Source: Myxococcota bacterium (GTDB lineage Bacteria > Myxococcota > JACRCW01). From it: a stretch of 25,309 bases of DNA. The notes beneath the pieces were generated by a model. It was given only the letters and a program-made list of their open reading frames with translations. It had not been told where the DNA came from and ran no database searches. Where the stretch lies: the NCBI GenBank assembly GCA_040752415.1, contig JBFMGU010000158.1:1-25309 (forward strand), given 5' to 3'. This document shows positions 2,699 through 23,305 of this stretch, piece after piece. Numbering within the stretch: the stretch's first letter is position 1; each line of letters starts with the position of its first letter. A program made the position numbers and the translations under genes.

Positions 2699-3217
2699 AT
2701 GGGCAAAGGCGGCAGAGGACCAGGCGGCGGCAGCCACAGGCCGGAACGGGTGGGAGAGACCATCCGGGAGGTGCTGGCGGAGCGCCTGGTCCGCGGCCTG
2801 AAGACGCCTGGCGTGGGCTTCTGCACCATCACCGGTGTGGAGGTCACGCCGGACATGTCCCACGCCAAGGTCTTTGTCTCGGTGTACGGCAGCGCCGCGG
2901 AGCGGGAAGGCACGCTCAAGGCCCTCAACCGCGCGTCCAGCTACCTGCGCGGGGAGGTGAGCCGCGCGCTGCGCATGAAGGTCACCCCCACGCTGGTCTT
3001 CCACTACGACGAGAGCCTGGACCGCGCCGCCCGCGTGGATGCTGCGCTCAAGCGTGCGCTGGAGGAGGATAGGGCGCTGGCGGCCCAGCGTGGGGAGGGG
3101 GCACCCTCCGACGCACAAGGAGACGGCCATGGAAAGAGCACCCCAGCCCCAGACGGCCAAGACGGAGGAGGAGGCAAGGACCGGGGTCGCAACGCGGGCG
3201 CACGACGGGGCAGCTGA
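2699..3217 (+). CDS. rbfA: Ribosome-binding factor A with a low-complexity C-terminal tail
   Basis: RPERVGETIREVLA, TITGVEVTPDMSHAKVFVS, LRMKVTPTLVFHYDESL. ATG at 2699, 4 nt after the DUF503 stop; infB-rbfA-truB synteny. Confidence 0.95.
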   Translation: MGKGGRGPGGGSHRPERVGETIREVLAERLVRGLKTPGVGFCTITGVEVTPDMSHAKVFVSVYGSAAEREGTLKALNRASSYLRGEVSRALRMKVTPTLVFHYDESLDRAARVDAALKRALEEDRALAAQRGEGAPSDAQGDGHGKSTPAPDGQDGGGGKDRGRNAGARRGS

Positions 3218-10870: not shown

Positions 10871-12151
10871 TCAGTGCTCGACGATCTTGAACTCGACGCG
10901 GCGGTTGAGCGCCTTGCCCTTGGCGGTCTTGTTGGACGCAATGGGCCGCGTCTCACCAAAGCCCACCGACTCCAGCGCGTCGGGCGAGACGCCTTCCCGC
11001 TGGATCAGGTGCATGCGCACCGCGTCCGCGCGGGACTGCGAGAGCTTGAGGTTCCGCGCGTCGGGGCCGTCGCTGTCCGTGTGGCCCTCAATCAGCACCT
11101 TCTTGTAGCCACCGGACTTGATGGCGTCGGCAACCTGGCGCAGCAGCTCGTTGCTGTCGGGCAGGATCTTCGCCTTGTTCTTGGCAAAGTGGACCTGCTG
11201 CTTGATCTCGATCTTCTCCTTGGTGACGACGATCAGGCTGTACTTCTTGGGACAACCCTGCTCCTCGGCGATGCCGTACTCCTCGGGGCAGCGGTCCACG
11301 TCGTCGCTGATGCCGTCGCCGTCGCGGTCGGTGACCGGGCAGCCGTTGTTGGTGGGCGGGCCCGGGTCATTCGGGCAGCGGTCCACGCCGTCCACCAGGC
11401 CGTCGCCGTCGTTGTCCGGGTCGGGACAGCCGTCCTCATCCATGTGGCCGTCCACGTCCTCCGGGTCCGCCGGGCAGCCGTCCTTCTCGTCCAGGATGCC
11501 GTCGTTGTCGGCGTCACGCGCGGGGCAGCCGTCGCGCTCCGGCAGGCCGGGCTCGTCGGGACACGCGTCGCGGTCATCCTGCACGCCGTCGCCGTCGCGG
11601 TCGGTGACCGGGCAGCCGTGGTTGGCCGCCGGGCCGGGCACGTTGGGACAGGTGTCCTCCGGGTCCAGCACGCCGTCGGCGTCATTGTCCGGCTCCGGAC
11701 AGCCGTCCTCGTCCTGGAACGCGTCGCGGTCCTCGGGCTCCACCGGGCACTGATCAACGTCGTCGGTGATGCCGTCGCCGTCCTGGTCGGTCTTCTCCAC
11801 GCGGATGACCACCGGCTTGTCCGCCTCCTTGATCAGCACGCGCTTGGGCCCGCACCCCTCGCTGTTCTGCAGCGCGGCCTGCGCGTTCTCCTGCGCCACC
11901 TGCAGGTGCTCATTGGCCTTGGTGAAGTTGCCCTGGTCCAGCTCCGCGTCGGCAAAGTCCGCGTGCGCCTCCGCCAACGCCAGCTCGCGCGGGCTGCAGC
12001 GCATGGCCCCGGAGGCGCGCGCCTTGTCCGTGTCCCGACGGACGGATTTCAGCTCGGTCTTCACCTGCGGGCCGGTGAGACACGCGCTCCCAAACGCGAG
12101 GGGAAGCGCCAGGAGGAAGCGCGCGGCAAGACGGGCAGTCTGGTGCGTCAT
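10871..12151 (-). CDS. Lipoprotein with DUF4398-like helical domain, thrombospondin type-3-like Ca-binding repeats and OmpA-like peptidoglycan-binding domain
   Basis: Signal peptide ending FGSA-C; repeated DxDxDG..D..D.CP; C-terminal IEGHTDS...NLKLSQSRA...NRRVEF. Confidence 0.92.
   Translation of the reverse strand: MTHQTARLAARFLLALPLAFGSACLTGPQVKTELKSVRRDTDKARASGAMRCSPRELALAEAHADFADAELDQGNFTKANEHLQVAQENAQAALQNSEGCGPKRVLIKEADKPVVIRVEKTDQDGDGITDDVDQCPVEPEDRDAFQDEDGCPEPDNDADGVLDPEDTCPNVPGPAANHGCPVTDRDGDGVQDDRDACPDEPGLPERDGCPARDADNDGILDEKDGCPADPEDVDGHMDEDGCPDPDNDGDGLVDGVDRCPNDPGPPTNNGCPVTDRDGDGISDDVDRCPEEYGIAEEQGCPKKYSLIVVTKEKIEIKQQVHFAKNKAKILPDSNELLRQVADAIKSGGYKKVLIEGHTDSDGPDARNLKLSQSRADAVRMHLIQREGVSPDALESVGFGETRPIASNKTAKGKALNRRVEFKIVEH
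11243..11788 (-). repeat. TSP3-like repeat tract built from two 91-codon units
   Basis: Six DxDxDG...CP modules; an identical 35-nt segment at 11312-11346 and 11585-11619 (offset 273 nt). Confidence 0.85.
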
Positions 12152-18678: not shown

Positions 18679-19523
18679 GCGAGACACTGCTGCCGGTCCA
18701 GAACGCGCCGCCGGAGGGGAACCGGGCCATCCGCCTCGTCGAGGCCGTGGGCCGTCCGCTCGCCGACGCCATCAATGACTTCGGCGGGTTCTGGAAGTTC
18801 GTGGTGGGCACGTTCTTCTGGATGTTCCGGCCGCCCTACCGCTGGAAGCTCGTCATCGAGCAGATGAACTTCCTGGGCGTGGGCACCATCATCATCATCA
18901 TCCTGAGCGGCGCCTTCACCGGCGCGGTGTTCACCTTCCAGAGCCTGTTCGCGTTCCGTCGCTTCGGTGGCGAGGACCTCGTCGGAAGCACGGTGGTGAT
19001 CAGCCTGGCGCGTGAGCTGGGGCCCGCCATGACGGTGCTCCTGTTCGCCGGTCGCAGCGGCAGCTCCATGGCCACCGAGCTCGCCACCATGCGCGTCACC
19101 GAGCAGATCGACGCGATGGAGACCATGGCCGTCAACGCCATCCAGTACCTCGTGGTGCCGCGGGTGATTGCCAGCTTCCTCATGGTGCCCGCGCTCGAGA
19201 TGGTGTTCACCACGGCGGGCTGGGTGGGCTGCTACTGGATTGGCACCACGCGCGAGGGCCTGGACCCCGGCAACATGATCGAGCGGACCAACTACTTCCT
19301 GGACCCGCCGGACTTCCTGGAGGGCGTCATCAAGAGCGCACTGTACGGGACGTTCGTGGCGCTGATCAGCTGCTACAAGGGCTACATGACGACGGGCGGC
19401 GCGCGCGGCGTGGGCCTGGCGGCCACGAGCGCGGTGGTGGTGAGCTCGGTGTCCATGGTGATGCTGAACTACTTCGTCACCGAGCTGATCCACCCGCTGC
19501 TCTACGCGCAGTACAACCTGTGA
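18675..19523 (+). CDS. mlaE: MlaE-family ABC transporter permease
   Basis: RELGP, AGRSGSSMATELATMRVTEQIDAMETM, LVVPR, GGARGVG.A; ATGA overlap with alr. Confidence 0.93.
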   Translation: MSETLLPVQNAPPEGNRAIRLVEAVGRPLADAINDFGGFWKFVVGTFFWMFRPPYRWKLVIEQMNFLGVGTIIIIILSGAFTGAVFTFQSLFAFRRFGGEDLVGSTVVISLARELGPAMTVLLFAGRSGSSMATELATMRVTEQIDAMETMAVNAIQYLVVPRVIASFLMVPALEMVFTTAGWVGCYWIGTTREGLDPGNMIERTNYFLDPPDFLEGVIKSALYGTFVALISCYKGYMTTGGARGVGLAATSAVVVSSVSMVMLNYFVTELIHPLLYAQYNL

Positions 19524-19527
19524 GCGG

Positions 19528-20535
19528 ATGGAGAAGATCCTCGTCATCCGGCTCTCCAGCATCGGGGACATCCTGCAGGCCAGCGCGGTGCCGCGCGTCC
19601 TGCGCAAGCGTTTTCCCCACGCGGAGATCCACTGGGTGGTGCGCAGCGACAACCTGCAGCTCATCCAGCACAACCCTCATCTCAGCCGCGTCTTCTCGTA
19701 CGACCGCAACACCGGTTTCGCCGGATTGCGCGCGCTGACGCGTGAGCTGCAGGCCCAGAAGTACACCCACGTCTACGACGCGCACTCCAACCTCCGCTCC
19801 CACTGGTTCTCGCTGTTCCTCCGTCCCAAGCACTTCATTCGTCGGGGGAAGCAGCGCTGGAAGCGGTGGCTGCTGTTCCTGCTGCGCATCAATCTCTTCC
19901 GCGGCTTCAACCCGGTGCGCAGCTTCATTGCGCCGTTGGCTCCCTGGGGCGTGACCGACGACGGACAAGGCAGCGAGATCCACCTCCCCACCGCCGTGAC
20001 GACGAAGGTGCGGGAGCGGATCAACGCGTTCGCGGGTGGCGCGGAGTGCATCGCAATGGCTCCGTCGGCGGCGTGGCCGAAGAAGCGCTGGCCGCTGGAG
20101 CACTGGTCGGAGCTGATCCGACGGATCCTCAGGGACACCGCGTACCGTGTCGTCGTGCTGGGCGGTCCGCAGGACGGTTTCTGCGCGGAGCTGGAAGCGA
20201 TTGATCCCACGCGCGTGCTCAACCTGCAGGGGAAGCTCAGCCTGCTGGAGAGCGCGGCGGCGGCGCAGGCGTGTCGCACGTTGGTGGCGGCGGACACGGG
20301 GCTGCTGCACATGGCGGAGGCGCTGGGGAAGGACGTGGTGGAGATGATTGGCCCCACGCCGTTCGGCTACCCCACGCGGCCGGGCAGCGTCGTGCTGGAG
20401 GTGCCGCTGTGGTGTCGACCGTGCACCAAGGACGGCGGCGGTCCGTGCGTGAACCCCGTCTACCAGCGCTGCATGCACGACATCACGCCCACGCGCGTGT
20501 TTGAGAGCCTCAAGATCCTGCAGGGACCCGGCTGA
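19528..20535 (+). CDS. Glycosyltransferase family 9 (WaaF/WaaC-like LPS heptosyltransferase)
   Basis: KILVIRLSSIGD, KRWP.EHW, DTGLLHMAEALG, C-terminal C..C...C...C pattern. Confidence 0.92.
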   Translation: MEKILVIRLSSIGDILQASAVPRVLRKRFPHAEIHWVVRSDNLQLIQHNPHLSRVFSYDRNTGFAGLRALTRELQAQKYTHVYDAHSNLRSHWFSLFLRPKHFIRRGKQRWKRWLLFLLRINLFRGFNPVRSFIAPLAPWGVTDDGQGSEIHLPTAVTTKVRERINAFAGGAECIAMAPSAAWPKKRWPLEHWSELIRRILRDTAYRVVVLGGPQDGFCAELEAIDPTRVLNLQGKLSLLESAAAAQACRTLVAADTGLLHMAEALGKDVVEMIGPTPFGYPTRPGSVVLEVPLWCRPCTKDGGGPCVNPVYQRCMHDITPTRVFESLKILQGPG

Positions 20536-20596
20536 CCAATTTACGATGTGTCGTAAAACGGTCTTGACCAATTTACGACGTTCCATAAAATGGTCA
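20533..20596. repeat. Two tandem 32-bp imperfect palindromes (putative operator array)
   Basis: TGACCAATTTACGA-tgtg-TCGTAAAACGGTCT followed directly by TGACCAATTTACGA-cgtt-CCATAAAATGGTCA; 26/32 identical; AT-rich in a high-GC background. Confidence 0.9.
20564..20591 (+). promoter_or_regulatory. Putative sigma70 promoter for a leaderless ATPase transcript
   Basis: TTGACC (20564-20569), 16 nt, TAAAAT (20586-20591). ATG begins at 20598; no Shine-Dalgarno in between. Confidence 0.6.
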
Positions 20597-20597
20597 C

Positions 20598-21794
20598 ATG
20601 CCGCAGCCTCGGGTCTACGAGGCCATTCTGCGCGAGCAGTTCGCCACGCTCCGCCAGATGGCGTTCGTCGCGGGTCCCCGCCAGGTGGGGAAGACCACGG
20701 TCGCGCGCCAGGTGGCAAACGCCTACTTCAACTGGGACAACGCGGATCACCGTCGGGTCATCCTTGCGGGGCCGAAGGCGGTGGCGGAGGAGGCGGGCCT
20801 GACGCGTTTGCGCGCGGATGTCCCGGTCATCGCTTTTGATGAGATCCACCGCCACGGAAAATGGAAGGCCTTCCTGAAAGGCTTCTTCGACACGTACTCG
20901 GAGCAGTGCCGTGTCGTCGTCACCGGGAGCTCAAGGTTGGATGTTTTCCGGCGTGGCGGGGACAGCCTCATGGGCCGGTACTTTCTGCACCACATGCATC
21001 CTCTCTCCGTGGGAGAGCTCCTGGAGCCGGTGGTGCCCGTCCAACCCGTTCGCAGTCCGCGCCGCATCGATGACGACGCGTGGGCCTCCCTGCAACTTCA
21101 CGGCGGCTATCCCGAGCCGTGGCTCCGCGCGGATTCTCGCTTCACGACGCGCTGGCGACGGATCCGCCTCCAGCAGTTGCTGCGCGAAGACGTGCGCGAC
21201 CTGACCCGGGTGCAGGAGTTGGCCCAGCTGGAGACCTTGGGCCTTCTCCTCACGGAACGGAGCGGGCAGCAGATTGTGCTCAGCAACCTGGCCGCGGACG
21301 TGGGGACGAGCGTGGACACGGTCCGGCGCTGGCTCTCCGTCCTGACGGGCCTGCACCACGGCTTCCTCGTGCGACCGTGGACCCGCAACGTGACGCGCAG
21401 CCTGCGCAAGGAGCCCAGGTGGTACCTGCGGGACTGGTCCGGTGTGGAGGACGAGGGGGCACGCGCGGAGACGTTGGTTGCGTGTCACCTGCTGAAGGCC
21501 GTCGAGATGTGGACGGACCTCGGGCTGGGCCAGTTCGACCTCTTCTATTTGCGGGACAAGGAGAAGCGGGAGGTGGACTTTGTGGTCATCCGCAATCGGA
21601 AGCCATGGTTTCTCGTCGATGTCAAAGCGTCCGACGAGCGCCTGTCTCCCTGGCTTGAGCACTTCCAGCAGCAGACCCGCGCGGAGCACGCCTTCCAGGT
21701 GGTCCTGGGCCTCCCGTTCGTCGACGCGGACTGCTTCAGTCGTCGGGCGCCCACCGTGATTCCGGCCCGGACGTTCCTGTCGCAGCTCCCGTAG
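20598..21794 (+). CDS. AAA+ ATPase (AAA_14) with DUF4143 / HTH and C-terminal PD-(D/E)xK-like domain
   Basis: Walker A GPRQVGKTT, Walker B IAFDEIH, VTGSS, GGYPE, HTH-like LSNLAADVGTSVDTVRRWL, C-terminal EVDFVV...LVDVK. Confidence 0.9.
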   Translation: MPQPRVYEAILREQFATLRQMAFVAGPRQVGKTTVARQVANAYFNWDNADHRRVILAGPKAVAEEAGLTRLRADVPVIAFDEIHRHGKWKAFLKGFFDTYSEQCRVVVTGSSRLDVFRRGGDSLMGRYFLHHMHPLSVGELLEPVVPVQPVRSPRRIDDDAWASLQLHGGYPEPWLRADSRFTTRWRRIRLQQLLREDVRDLTRVQELAQLETLGLLLTERSGQQIVLSNLAADVGTSVDTVRRWLSVLTGLHHGFLVRPWTRNVTRSLRKEPRWYLRDWSGVEDEGARAETLVACHLLKAVEMWTDLGLGQFDLFYLRDKEKREVDFVVIRNRKPWFLVDVKASDERLSPWLEHFQQQTRAEHAFQVVLGLPFVDADCFSRRAPTVIPARTFLSQLP

Positions 21795-21844
21795 GTCGGG
21801 TCGACATTTGACAGCGTGAAGATCCTCCGGTGAAGAGGGGCGCC

Positions 21845-23305
21845 ATGGAGCTTGCGCACGCCCTCAGCAGCCTCGGTCACCCTCGCATTGTCCTCGTGGG
21901 GGACGTGATGCTGGACCGCTACTCGTTCGGGGAGGTGCAGCGCATCTCGCCGGAGGCACCGGTACCGGTGCTGCGTGTGGGCAAGGAGGAGGAGCGGCTG
22001 GGGGGTGCCGGTTCCGTTGCTGCGGACCTGCTGATGCTCGGCGCGCGCGTGGACCTCTTGTGCGTGCTGGGTGACGACGCGGCGGGCATCCAGGTGCGTC
22101 GACTGGCGGAGAGCGCGGGCGCGCGCGTGCACGGCTGTCTCGTGGATTCCCGTCGTCAAACCATCCTCAAGACCCGGCACATCGCGCGCTCGGGTCCCTA
22201 CGGCCAGCAGGTCCTGCGCGTGGACCGTGAAGATGCGGTTCCGCTTGCCGCTGACGTCGAGGAACGCCTGCTCTCCGCCATCCGCGACGCGCTCCCGGGT
22301 GCGGACGCGCTCGTGCTCAGCGACTACGCCAAGGGCACGCTCACGCGTCGGGTGCTGAAGGAATCCATTGCCGCGGCGCGCGCGGCGAGGATCCCCGTCC
22401 TCGTCGACCCCAAAGGCGGCGACTTCACGCGCTACCAGGGCGCCACCTGCCTCACGCCCAACCGTCGCGAGGCCGCGGAGGCCACTGGCATCAGCCCCAT
22501 CGACGAGGACAGCACGCGCCGCGCGGGAAGGAAGCTGGTGGAGCTGGCGGAGCTGGACGTTGCGATCATCACGCTGGACCGCGACGGCATGGCGCTCTTC
22601 CACAAGGACGGTCGCGAGCTGATGGCGCCGACGAGGGCGCGCGAAGTCTTCGACGTCACCGGCGCGGGCGACATGGTGATGGCCATGCTGGCCCTGTGCG
22701 GTGCGGGCGGGCTGTCGTGGGAGACCGCGGTGCACCTGGCCAACGCCGCGGCGGGCGTGGAGGTCAGCAAGCTGGGCAGCGTCCCCATCACGCGACAGGA
22801 GGTGCTGCAGGCGTTGGGGGAGGGCACGCCCGCCGCCACCAAGGTGCTACCCGTCGAGGAGCTCCTGCCCGTGCTCGCCGCCAGGCGGGCCGCGGGCGCG
22901 CGCGTGGTGTTCACCAACGGTTGCTTCGACGTGCTGCACGTGGGCCACGCCCGCTACCTGGCCGCCGCGCGCACCGAGGGAGACCTGCTGGTGGTGGGCG
23001 TCAACGACGACGCATCGGTCTCGCGCCTCAAGGGTCCCGACCGCCCCATCGTCCCGCTTGCGGATCGGGCGGAGCTCCTCGCGGCGCTGGCCTGCGTGGA
23101 CTACGTGGTCAGCTTCTCCGAGGACACCCCGGCGCGGCTGATTGGGCAGGTGCTGCCCGACGTGCTGGTGAAGGGTGAGGACTGGAAGGACAAGGGCGTG
23201 GTGGGGCGTGACGTCGTGGAGGCGCGCGGCGGCAAGGTGGTGCTGGCGCGGTTGGAGCCCGGTAGGAGCACAACCGACATTGTGAAACGGATCCGAGGAA
23301 GCTGA
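21845..23305 (+). CDS. hldE: Bifunctional D-glycero-beta-D-manno-heptose-7-P kinase / heptose-1-P adenylyltransferase
   Basis: GDVMLDRY..G...RISPEAPVPV, SDYAKG, TPNRRE, DVTGAGD (PfkB-type kinase); FTNGCFDVLHVGH, LVKGED, STT (nucleotidyltransferase). Confidence 0.96.
   Translation: MELAHALSSLGHPRIVLVGDVMLDRYSFGEVQRISPEAPVPVLRVGKEEERLGGAGSVAADLLMLGARVDLLCVLGDDAAGIQVRRLAESAGARVHGCLVDSRRQTILKTRHIARSGPYGQQVLRVDREDAVPLAADVEERLLSAIRDALPGADALVLSDYAKGTLTRRVLKESIAAARAARIPVLVDPKGGDFTRYQGATCLTPNRREAAEATGISPIDEDSTRRAGRKLVELAELDVAIITLDRDGMALFHKDGRELMAPTRAREVFDVTGAGDMVMAMLALCGAGGLSWETAVHLANAAAGVEVSKLGSVPITRQEVLQALGEGTPAATKVLPVEELLPVLAARRAAGARVVFTNGCFDVLHVGHARYLAAARTEGDLLVVGVNDDASVSRLKGPDRPIVPLADRAELLAALACVDYVVSFSEDTPARLIGQVLPDVLVKGEDWKDKGVVGRDVVEARGGKVVLARLEPGRSTTDIVKRIRGS

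Follow-up and report, generated by a model that had tools for sequence, protein, structure and literature searches.

We analysed a 25,309-nucleotide stretch of DNA from a Myxococcota bacterium (contig JBFMGU010000158.1 of assembly GCA_040752415.1; hereafter the window), in which a GT9 glycosyltransferase gene is followed by a gene for an ATPase-nuclease carrying AAA_14 and DUF4143 domains. The intergenic gap between the stop codon of the first gene and the ATG of the second consists of two abutting 32-bp units, which together form a 64-bp array. Unit 1 (20533-20564) has the TGA stop codon of the GT9 gene as its first three nucleotides, while unit 2 (20565-20596) is followed by one C and then by the ATG at 20598. 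An earlier note on this DNA had described tandem 32-bp palindromic units filling the gap, with the TGA as the first three nucleotides; its coordinates and its four half-site sequences (given in order in Table 1) proved exact. The arms pair at 11 of 14 positions in each unit, the two units are identical at 26 of 32 positions, and the G+C content of the gap is 40%, against 70% for the window. The description as two units stood only in part: the units are real, but the strongest dyad of the array is the one at their junction (12 of 14 pairs), which looks like its core. Three dyad axes are spaced by 16 bp, and the array is a series of four half-sites at a 16-bp pitch.

Table 1. Coordinates of the array, the predicted promoter and the genes around them in the window
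Feature	Position	Strand	Basis
Half-site 1, gene-distal, TGACCAATTTACGA	20533..20546	+	
Half-site 2, inverted, AGACCGTTTTACGA; left arm of junction dyad	20551..20564	-	
Half-site 3, TGACCAATTTACGA; right arm of junction dyad	20565..20578	+	
Half-site 4, inverted, gene-proximal, weakest, TGACCATTTTATGG; holds the -10 box	20583..20596	-	
Junction dyad, 30 bp, 12/14 pairs; most conserved portion of the array, also present in phages	20550..20579	.	
Predicted -35 box, TTGACC	20564..20569	+	
Predicted -10 box, TAAAAT	20586..20591	+	
398-aa AAA_14+DUF4143 gene (COG1373, PADLOC PDC-S01), predicted leaderless	20598..21794	+	
Winged helix-turn-helix, about residues 205-280; recognition helix 239-251	21210..21437	+	models, fold matches
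Asp240 codon, top co-varying residue for inner half-site ACG	21315..21317	+	
PD-(D/E)XK nuclease domain (E291, D327, D341, K343)	21450..21791	+	
Lys321 codon, co-varies with outer C of half-site	21558-21560	+	
GT9 glycosyltransferase gene, neighbour outside the cassette	19528..20535	+	Pfam PF01075 1.2e-25
hldE-type kinase/adenylyltransferase gene, downstream neighbour; no site copy between it and the ATPase gene	21830..23305	+	

The agreement among four phased half-sites was summed at all positions of the source genome (G000, 11 Mb). The array scored 68/84, which was the highest value of 10,978,400 positions, and it is therefore not due to chance. The next-best scores, 60 and 53, were both found before TetR-like genes (the labels TetR-like, GT4-like, lipoprotein-like and STAND-like are our own sequence readings where no family call exists). 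When the palindrome was searched in G000 at up to 3 mismatches of 28, only these two units were retrieved; the scan for further copies that the earlier note had proposed gave none below 7 mismatches. The 7-mismatch site, on contig C26, was rejected as a related copy; it precedes a TetR-like gene. Palindromes or tandem palindromes directly before TetR-like genes were seen at L031 near 3115-3146 (G000:C26:26614), G000:C294:4827 and G000:C139:9025, and are probably ordinary autoregulatory operators. The array is not an assembly artefact, since a contig from a sequencing run repeats positions 20430-20686 with two differing letters. In a repeat search of the whole window, the array was absent from the longest repeat pairs.

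We then compared 157 distinct full-length loci of the gene family, near-duplicates being included so that not all of them are independent (this set and a 197-locus set exclude partial genes as well as loci in which the Walker A motif or the start codon is missing). Within the 80 nt at the gene start, 25 of the 26 close homologues had a palindrome with 11 or more of 14 pairs, as had 23 of 39 mid and 48 of 92 distant ones. The corresponding counts were 1/25, 1/36 and 1/85 in control windows located 250-330 nt upstream, and 0/25, 2/39 and 8/91 in windows after the stop codon. Comparable palindromes upstream of homologues, which the earlier note had made a test of its reading, are thus present, and the site accompanies the gene across phyla. 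The dyad profile of the close homologues was 0.66 at position -34 (the junction), 0.60 at -50 and 0.54 at -18. Four phased half-sites were found in 18 of the 29 loci of the same specificity (range 2-8); the two inner half-sites matched the consensus at 11.6-11.7 of 14 positions and the two outer ones at 9.3-9.8, in a registration that favours the inner pair. An extra copy of its own dyad lies about 180 nt before the start in locus L219. Two distant paralogues in G000 (L032, on C91 near 7050, and one on C495 near 24300) have their own, different single palindromes at the start, of 13 and 9 of 14 pairs, respectively.

A pattern scan of 401 genomes of the same phylum gave matches in nine. Six had the gene directly behind the match and one had a truncated gene, so that seven of the nine lie at the gene or its remnant, or eight with the inclusion of one orphan array; the last was a single 3-mismatch match. 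This match (in G247) and an extra one in G014 (C180) were judged chance-like. At the truncated gene (L156:92-573, G076:C452), the array is followed after about 6 bp by the last third of the ATPase gene, as left by an internal deletion from the array end. The orphan (L157:1469-1530, G071:C182) is a two-unit array between vWA and radical-SAM genes in a genome that is 92% complete, in which a search with the source protein gave no match of the cognate subfamily. Both matches in 301 further genomes precede a cognate gene. The motif is thus not scattered before unrelated genes in these bacteria (G000 and the 401 and 301 genomes), as it would be for the global regulator considered in the earlier note.

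Co-variation between protein and site was determined with 105 close and mid homologues placed on a tree, by comparing protein columns with half-site similarity after removal of tree distance. Fifteen loci were dropped because the agreement of their inner half-sites was below 9 of 14 positions (90 kept), and four more because they registered on the other dyad (86 kept), and a registration-free repeat used all 105 loci. The results showed that residue 240, in the first turn of the recognition helix, ranked first of 330 variable columns for the inner half-site (z 7.7; z 9.4 for one position), followed by residues 239 and 244. In the registration-free repeat, an ACG half-site was present with 34 of the 37 proteins that have Asp240 and with 1 of the 68 others, which has a glutamate; this corresponds to about 6:0 independent pairs (median p 0.03). 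Among the 86 registered loci, a lysine at position 240 was associated with GGA (14/19 vs 0/67), an asparagine with GCA (8/11 vs 0/75) and a proline with AA (9/9 vs 4/77). The outer C of the half-site was present in 65 of 65 loci with Lys321 and in 5 of 21 others, three of these five having an arginine. Residue 321 is located in a hairpin of the nuclease domain, and residues 267-272 of the wing also ranked high for the outer positions. In the source protein, residues 240 and 321 are Asp and Lys, and its site reads GAC...ACG, in agreement with the code.

Comparison of 41 pairs of paralogues from the same genome showed that their half-sites match at 8.2 of 14 positions, against 7.7-9.3 for cross-genome pairs at equal protein identity. 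Since the sites of paralogues are no more alike than those of cross-genome pairs, a shared host regulator is excluded. The earlier note had proposed that the array is read by the HTH region of the ATPase itself and that half-sites should vary together with residues of that region; co-variation with winged-helix residues 240, 239 and 244 was found and supports this reading at the level of sequence. Because of this co-variation, it is very probable that the gene's own product binds the array, and the co-variation and the predicted fold both indicate that site specificity is set by the winged helix encoded in cis.

The inverted repeats overlap the predicted promoter of the gene, as would be expected of an operator. 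The TTGACC at the unit junction, the TAAAAT 16 nt further on and the missing Shine-Dalgarno sequence described in the earlier note were all confirmed, with 6 nt between the -10 box and the ATG. This pair was the sole sigma70-like match in positions 19000-22500 (1 found, 0.3 expected). The tuning of the two boxes was specific to the gene-proximal unit in 49 loci: at the proximal junction, the two T of the -35 box were found in 34 and 32 loci, but at the equivalent place one unit upstream in only 14 and 13. Of the two -10 slots, the proximal one resembles TATAAT more closely (third T, 13 loci vs 4; fifth A, 40 vs 29). A Shine-Dalgarno-like word was present in the 14 nt before the start in 0 of the 29 loci of the same specificity. 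This absence and the proximal tuning of the -35 and -10 boxes make it likely that the transcript is leaderless and starts at the ATG at 20598.

The two domains of the protein were recognised in one chain with 84.5 bits (AAA_14, PF13173) and 83.7 bits (DUF4143, PF13635), against cut-offs of 27 and 28.1, which makes the gene a member of PDC-S01; PDC-S01 profiles were its only PADLOC matches (PDLC04790, 2.8e-52). The Walker residues G26, K32, D81 and E82 are kept in 105 of 105 homologues, and the nuclease residues nearly so (E291 and D327 in 104/105, K343 and E/D341 in 102/105; the source protein has Asp341). No solved structure was found by sequence for the ATPase-nuclease. A model of the full protein (mean predicted local distance difference test score, pLDDT, of 89) contains a nucleoside triphosphatase (NTPase) domain, a helical part, a winged helix and a C-terminal alpha/beta domain, and the C-terminal half modelled alone reached a pLDDT of 94. 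The whole model matched SSO1545 (Z 13.8, root-mean-square deviation (rmsd) 4.8, 251 residues aligned) and PAB2304 (Z 13.2), and its first Foldseek match was Orc1 bound to DNA. Residues 205-280 matched CRP (Z 7.8, rmsd 1.3, 57 aligned), with SmtB and CzrA at the top of a second fold search, while the matches of the nuclease domain were middling (Can1, 6sce, Z 6.7, rmsd 3.5, 124 aligned; McrC, E 0.011). The close homologues L230, L238 and a plasmid match (H1, NZ_CP104165.1) have an internal stop or are in two pieces, which suggests frequent inactivation of the gene.

Taken together, these results make it probable that the array is the cognate operator of the adjacent ATPase-nuclease gene, through which the protein would repress its own predicted leaderless promoter. 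One protomer would occupy each 16-bp half-site, with the first turn of the recognition helix (Asp240, together with residues 239 and 244) reading the inner ACG, and the hairpin of the nuclease domain (Lys321) and the wing reading the outer GAC. The junction dyad would bring two protomers together over the -35 box, and the outer pair of half-sites, which is weaker, would lengthen the assembly. The occupied array would block RNA polymerase and keep at a low level a nuclease whose active site appears intact. Promoter, operator and gene would then constitute a self-sufficient one-gene cassette able to work in any host. The binding, the stoichiometry, the cooperativity, the repression, the start site and any role of ATP are what we infer from this arrangement.

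Several observations weigh against this reading. The independent pairs are few (4:0 for Lys, about 4.5:0 for Asn, 3:0 for Pro and about 4:0 for Lys321), and the Asp class alone reaches p<0.05 in them. The Lys, Asn, Pro and Lys321 associations weaken in the registration-free repeat, where they keep the same direction but fall short of significance, and the base patterns were chosen after the data had been seen. Three proteins with Asp240 have no ACG site (L216, L217 and L119), and 44 of the 92 distant homologues are below the palindrome threshold. Because the half-site consensus itself includes the -10 hexamer, the latter does not count as separate evidence of a promoter. In the relatives L039, L042, L213, L214 and L218, the array is placed further upstream, and the -35 box is the only promoter element that it reaches. 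Finally, one copy of the site is located inside a phage coding region, and repression alone leaves its retention there unexplained.

The junction dyad was found in one contig of IMG/VR, and a looser pattern found it in four contigs belonging to three unrelated lineages, against a chance expectation of 0.006-0.05 for an assumed collection size of 5e10-1e11 bases. A reversed control pattern gave 0 matches in IMG/VR, the strict unit-centred pattern and the Pro-type pattern each gave 0 in the phage scans, and the looser Asp pattern gave no new phage contig. Five site-carrying contigs, which are 24-88% complete, were checked for a DUF4143 gene and none was found. A search of IMG/VR with the source protein gave no close homologue of the ATPase, and the phages of GenBank gave one distant record. 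Two matches of the 64-bp array in GenBank phages, with E=2, were treated as chance.

In the first of the three lineages (L203:1983-2029, identical to L248 and L262, with a 97% relative, L249), the dyad is in frame in a gene for a family-A DNA polymerase, where it replaces, without a change in length, the loop of 11 codons that precedes motif C; the loop is different in 11 other relatives. Compared with five relatives of the same length and 79-85% identity, this 11-codon window was the most divergent of 253, with 1-2 of 11 positions identical, while agreement among the five relatives themselves was 6-10 of 11. Ancestral codons make up the third half-site of this gene, which is therefore not independent. 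Conservation of the dyad at synonymous positions, compared between the two copies of the polymerase gene, was too weak a signal (41 of 264 codons differ synonymously overall). In the second lineage, of small phage contigs (L263:1582-1629, identical to L264, and L278 near 2862-2906), three phased half-sites match a bacterial array at 41 of 48 positions. In L263 and L264, the dyad occupies the interval between a stop codon and the ATG of a lipoprotein-like gene, itself located upstream of a holin-like gene, and the half-sites extend across this start codon. In the third (L261:1601-1628), the dyad lies between a portal gene and a gene resembling phosphoadenosine phosphosulfate (PAPS) reductase. 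By their sequences, these copies look like captured host operator DNA; in the reading that we prefer, they would titrate or pacify the protein, possibly as decoys. The earlier note had not foreseen phage-borne copies, and they keep alive its alternative that the site matters for the nuclease.

That alternative finds a precedent in BstA, a single defence gene with a cognate element, aba, of about 60 bp at its start. The element is 63 bp long (29 bp upstream and 34 bp of coding sequence), was protective in high copy by experiment, and DNA bearing it could escape BstA (PMC8585504). By this analogy, the protein would bind the array mainly in order to hold its nuclease inactive, at a self-immunity or parking site that phages copy to evade it. 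Its best arguments are the excess of phage-borne dyads over expectation and over the reversed control, the lack of a DUF4143 gene on the five contigs, the 11-codon replacement without a change in length, the three phased half-sites of the second lineage and the co-variation of a nuclease-domain residue with the site. We nevertheless consider it unlikely, because the copies represent three lineages only, on incomplete contigs, the Pro-type and strict unit-centred patterns had no phage matches, the third polymerase half-site is ancestral, and titration could equally derepress the gene. In addition, one PDC-S01 coding sequence, placed on an expression vector in E. coli B and challenged with T4, T5 and T7 in a cold-seep study, was not among the four systems reported there as protective (10.1101/2024.09.26.614923). 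Such a role can coexist with autorepression, and it assumes, like the next alternative, that the protein binds its own site. Here the element is a phased palindrome array, its protective effect is putative, and it seems to have been taken up by unrelated phages in nature, which differs from aba; moreover, BstA is an unrelated protein, and the source protein belongs to AAA_14+DUF4143 and not to the BstA family. A combined proposal, in which PDC-S01 proteins are minimal STAND-like nucleases with a re-programmable DNA code (Asp, Lys, Asn or Pro at a single position of the helix for ACG, GGA, GCA or AA), the phased self-site both represses the gene and quiets the nuclease, and wild phages escape by recombining the 30-bp core into their genomes, in one case in frame within a DNA polymerase gene, is put forward tentatively.

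The second alternative is a selfish element of one gene with the array as its working end: the protein would cut or recombine there and so move the cassette, and the orphan and phage copies would be scars left by insertion and loss. The ATPase-nuclease gene is a solo cassette without a conserved partner: in 65 close loci, no neighbouring family occurred more than twice, except for same-family paralogues in four. Its close copies are patchy (4/201, 10/201 and 26/151 genomes in three other phyla), and in G001, a genome of the same family, mlaE and hldE are syntenic with no ATPase gene between them. An empty site with the same GT9 gene beside hldE was not found; G001 has a different glycosyltransferase-like open reading frame there, and the best GT9 matches in G001-G003 are just 28-37% identical. 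No contig of the sequencing runs had a junction that skips the cassette, at a coverage too thin to be informative. The orphan array of G071, where five relatives have none, the array of G076 followed only by residues 259-397 of the ATPase, and the cassettes of L162 and L163, bracketed by a second copy 83-92 nt after the stop, would also fit mobility. This explanation is improbable, since the window has no second copy behind the gene and 2 of 86 loci have one right behind, the protein has no recombinase domain, and the same-length in-frame replacement in the polymerase gene is unlike a plain insertion scar. Furthermore, plasmids seldom carry the gene (of 121 matches, the 25 listed include 2 records, with 35-47% identity), and the cassette was not found in IMG/VR with the source query.

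A separate host regulator, for which the ATPase gene would be just one target, is suggested by the generic repressor layout of the next-best tandem dyads before TetR-like genes, but is very hard to reconcile with the absence of other copies in G000, with the position of the matches at the gene, its remnant or a cognate gene in the 401 and 301 genomes, and with paralogues whose sites differ within a genome and follow the protein's own helix. A role as an RNA hairpin, at which the GT9 transcript would be terminated or processed, is just as implausible: the strand folds at -21.1 kcal/mol (z -3.8), but any palindrome folds, there is no T tract, no terminator call and no Rfam 15 match at E<=1 in 19400-22200, and base identity and 16-bp phasing are conserved rather than pairing alone and co-vary with a DNA-binding helix.

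Two other observations were made in the window. The 50-bp gap before hldE (21795-21844) contains a perfect TTGACA, with no promoter call and no operator copy, and is possibly the host's own hldE promoter region. An OmpA-family protein with repeated DxDGDG calcium-binding-like motifs is encoded at 10871-12151 (-) and is the source of the largest direct repeats of the window.

The operator reading brings the locus close to AbiE and Rv2827c, in which two to four inverted repeats lie over the promoter, one winged-helix protomer binds each repeat, binding is cognate-specific and autoregulation is negative (PMC7319586). Promoter inverted repeats and a winged helix encoded in cis are shared with our locus, where binding is deduced from sequence. 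The repeats of AbiE are 23 bp long and the system has two genes with a nucleotidyltransferase toxin, whereas here half-sites of 14-16 bp follow a strict 16-bp pitch and, unlike AbiE, reader and effector form one NTPase-nuclease chain. The two-gene organisation of type IV toxin-antitoxin systems is absent, the gene being single and without a conserved partner in the 65 loci. The array would work like an AbiE operator, but the locus is not a member of AbiE. SSO1545 (2FNA), PAB2304 (2QEN) and Orc1/Cdc6 on origin DNA (2V1U) have a common core of NTPase, helical part and winged helix, and in Orc1 the N-terminal and the C-terminal regions both touch DNA (PMC4599002). Compared with these proteins, to which it is 14-16% identical, the source protein adds a C-terminal PD-(D/E)XK domain and has its site on its own promoter and not at an origin.

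PDC-S01, an ATPase fused to a PD-(D/E)XK domain, is given as the fourth most common candidate defence system across prokaryotes, with about 39,000 copies and validation pending (PMC12988326). The accessible text on its identification bases this candidate status on gene embedding only (10.1101/2024.01.29.577857), and a table lists the function of COG1373 as unknown (PMC3424549). Among titles and abstracts on DUF4143, PDC-S01, COG1373 and AAA_14, with subscription journals and supplements outside the scope, no description of a binding site was found, and the accessible parts of the PDC-S01 literature describe no DNA-reading winged helix, autoregulation or phage-borne sites, unlike the reading presented here. 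Our comparisons of sequence indicate that an abundant candidate defence gene probably has a family-wide cognate operator with a putative one-residue code, and the phage-borne copies suggest a role of PDC-S01 in conflict. A defined cognate site and a one-residue code would provide a direct substrate for work on binding, cleavage, ATPase activity and structure, with a prediction for each subfamily, and the operator offers a possible reason why activity may go unseen when the coding sequence is assayed alone. Should the phage copies prove to be decoys, phages would be under selection from this family, and captured operator DNA would join the known anti-defence strategies. If phages do escape in this way, the copies would represent naturally evolved anti-defence by a captured operator and would be evidence from the field that PDC-S01 acts against phages.

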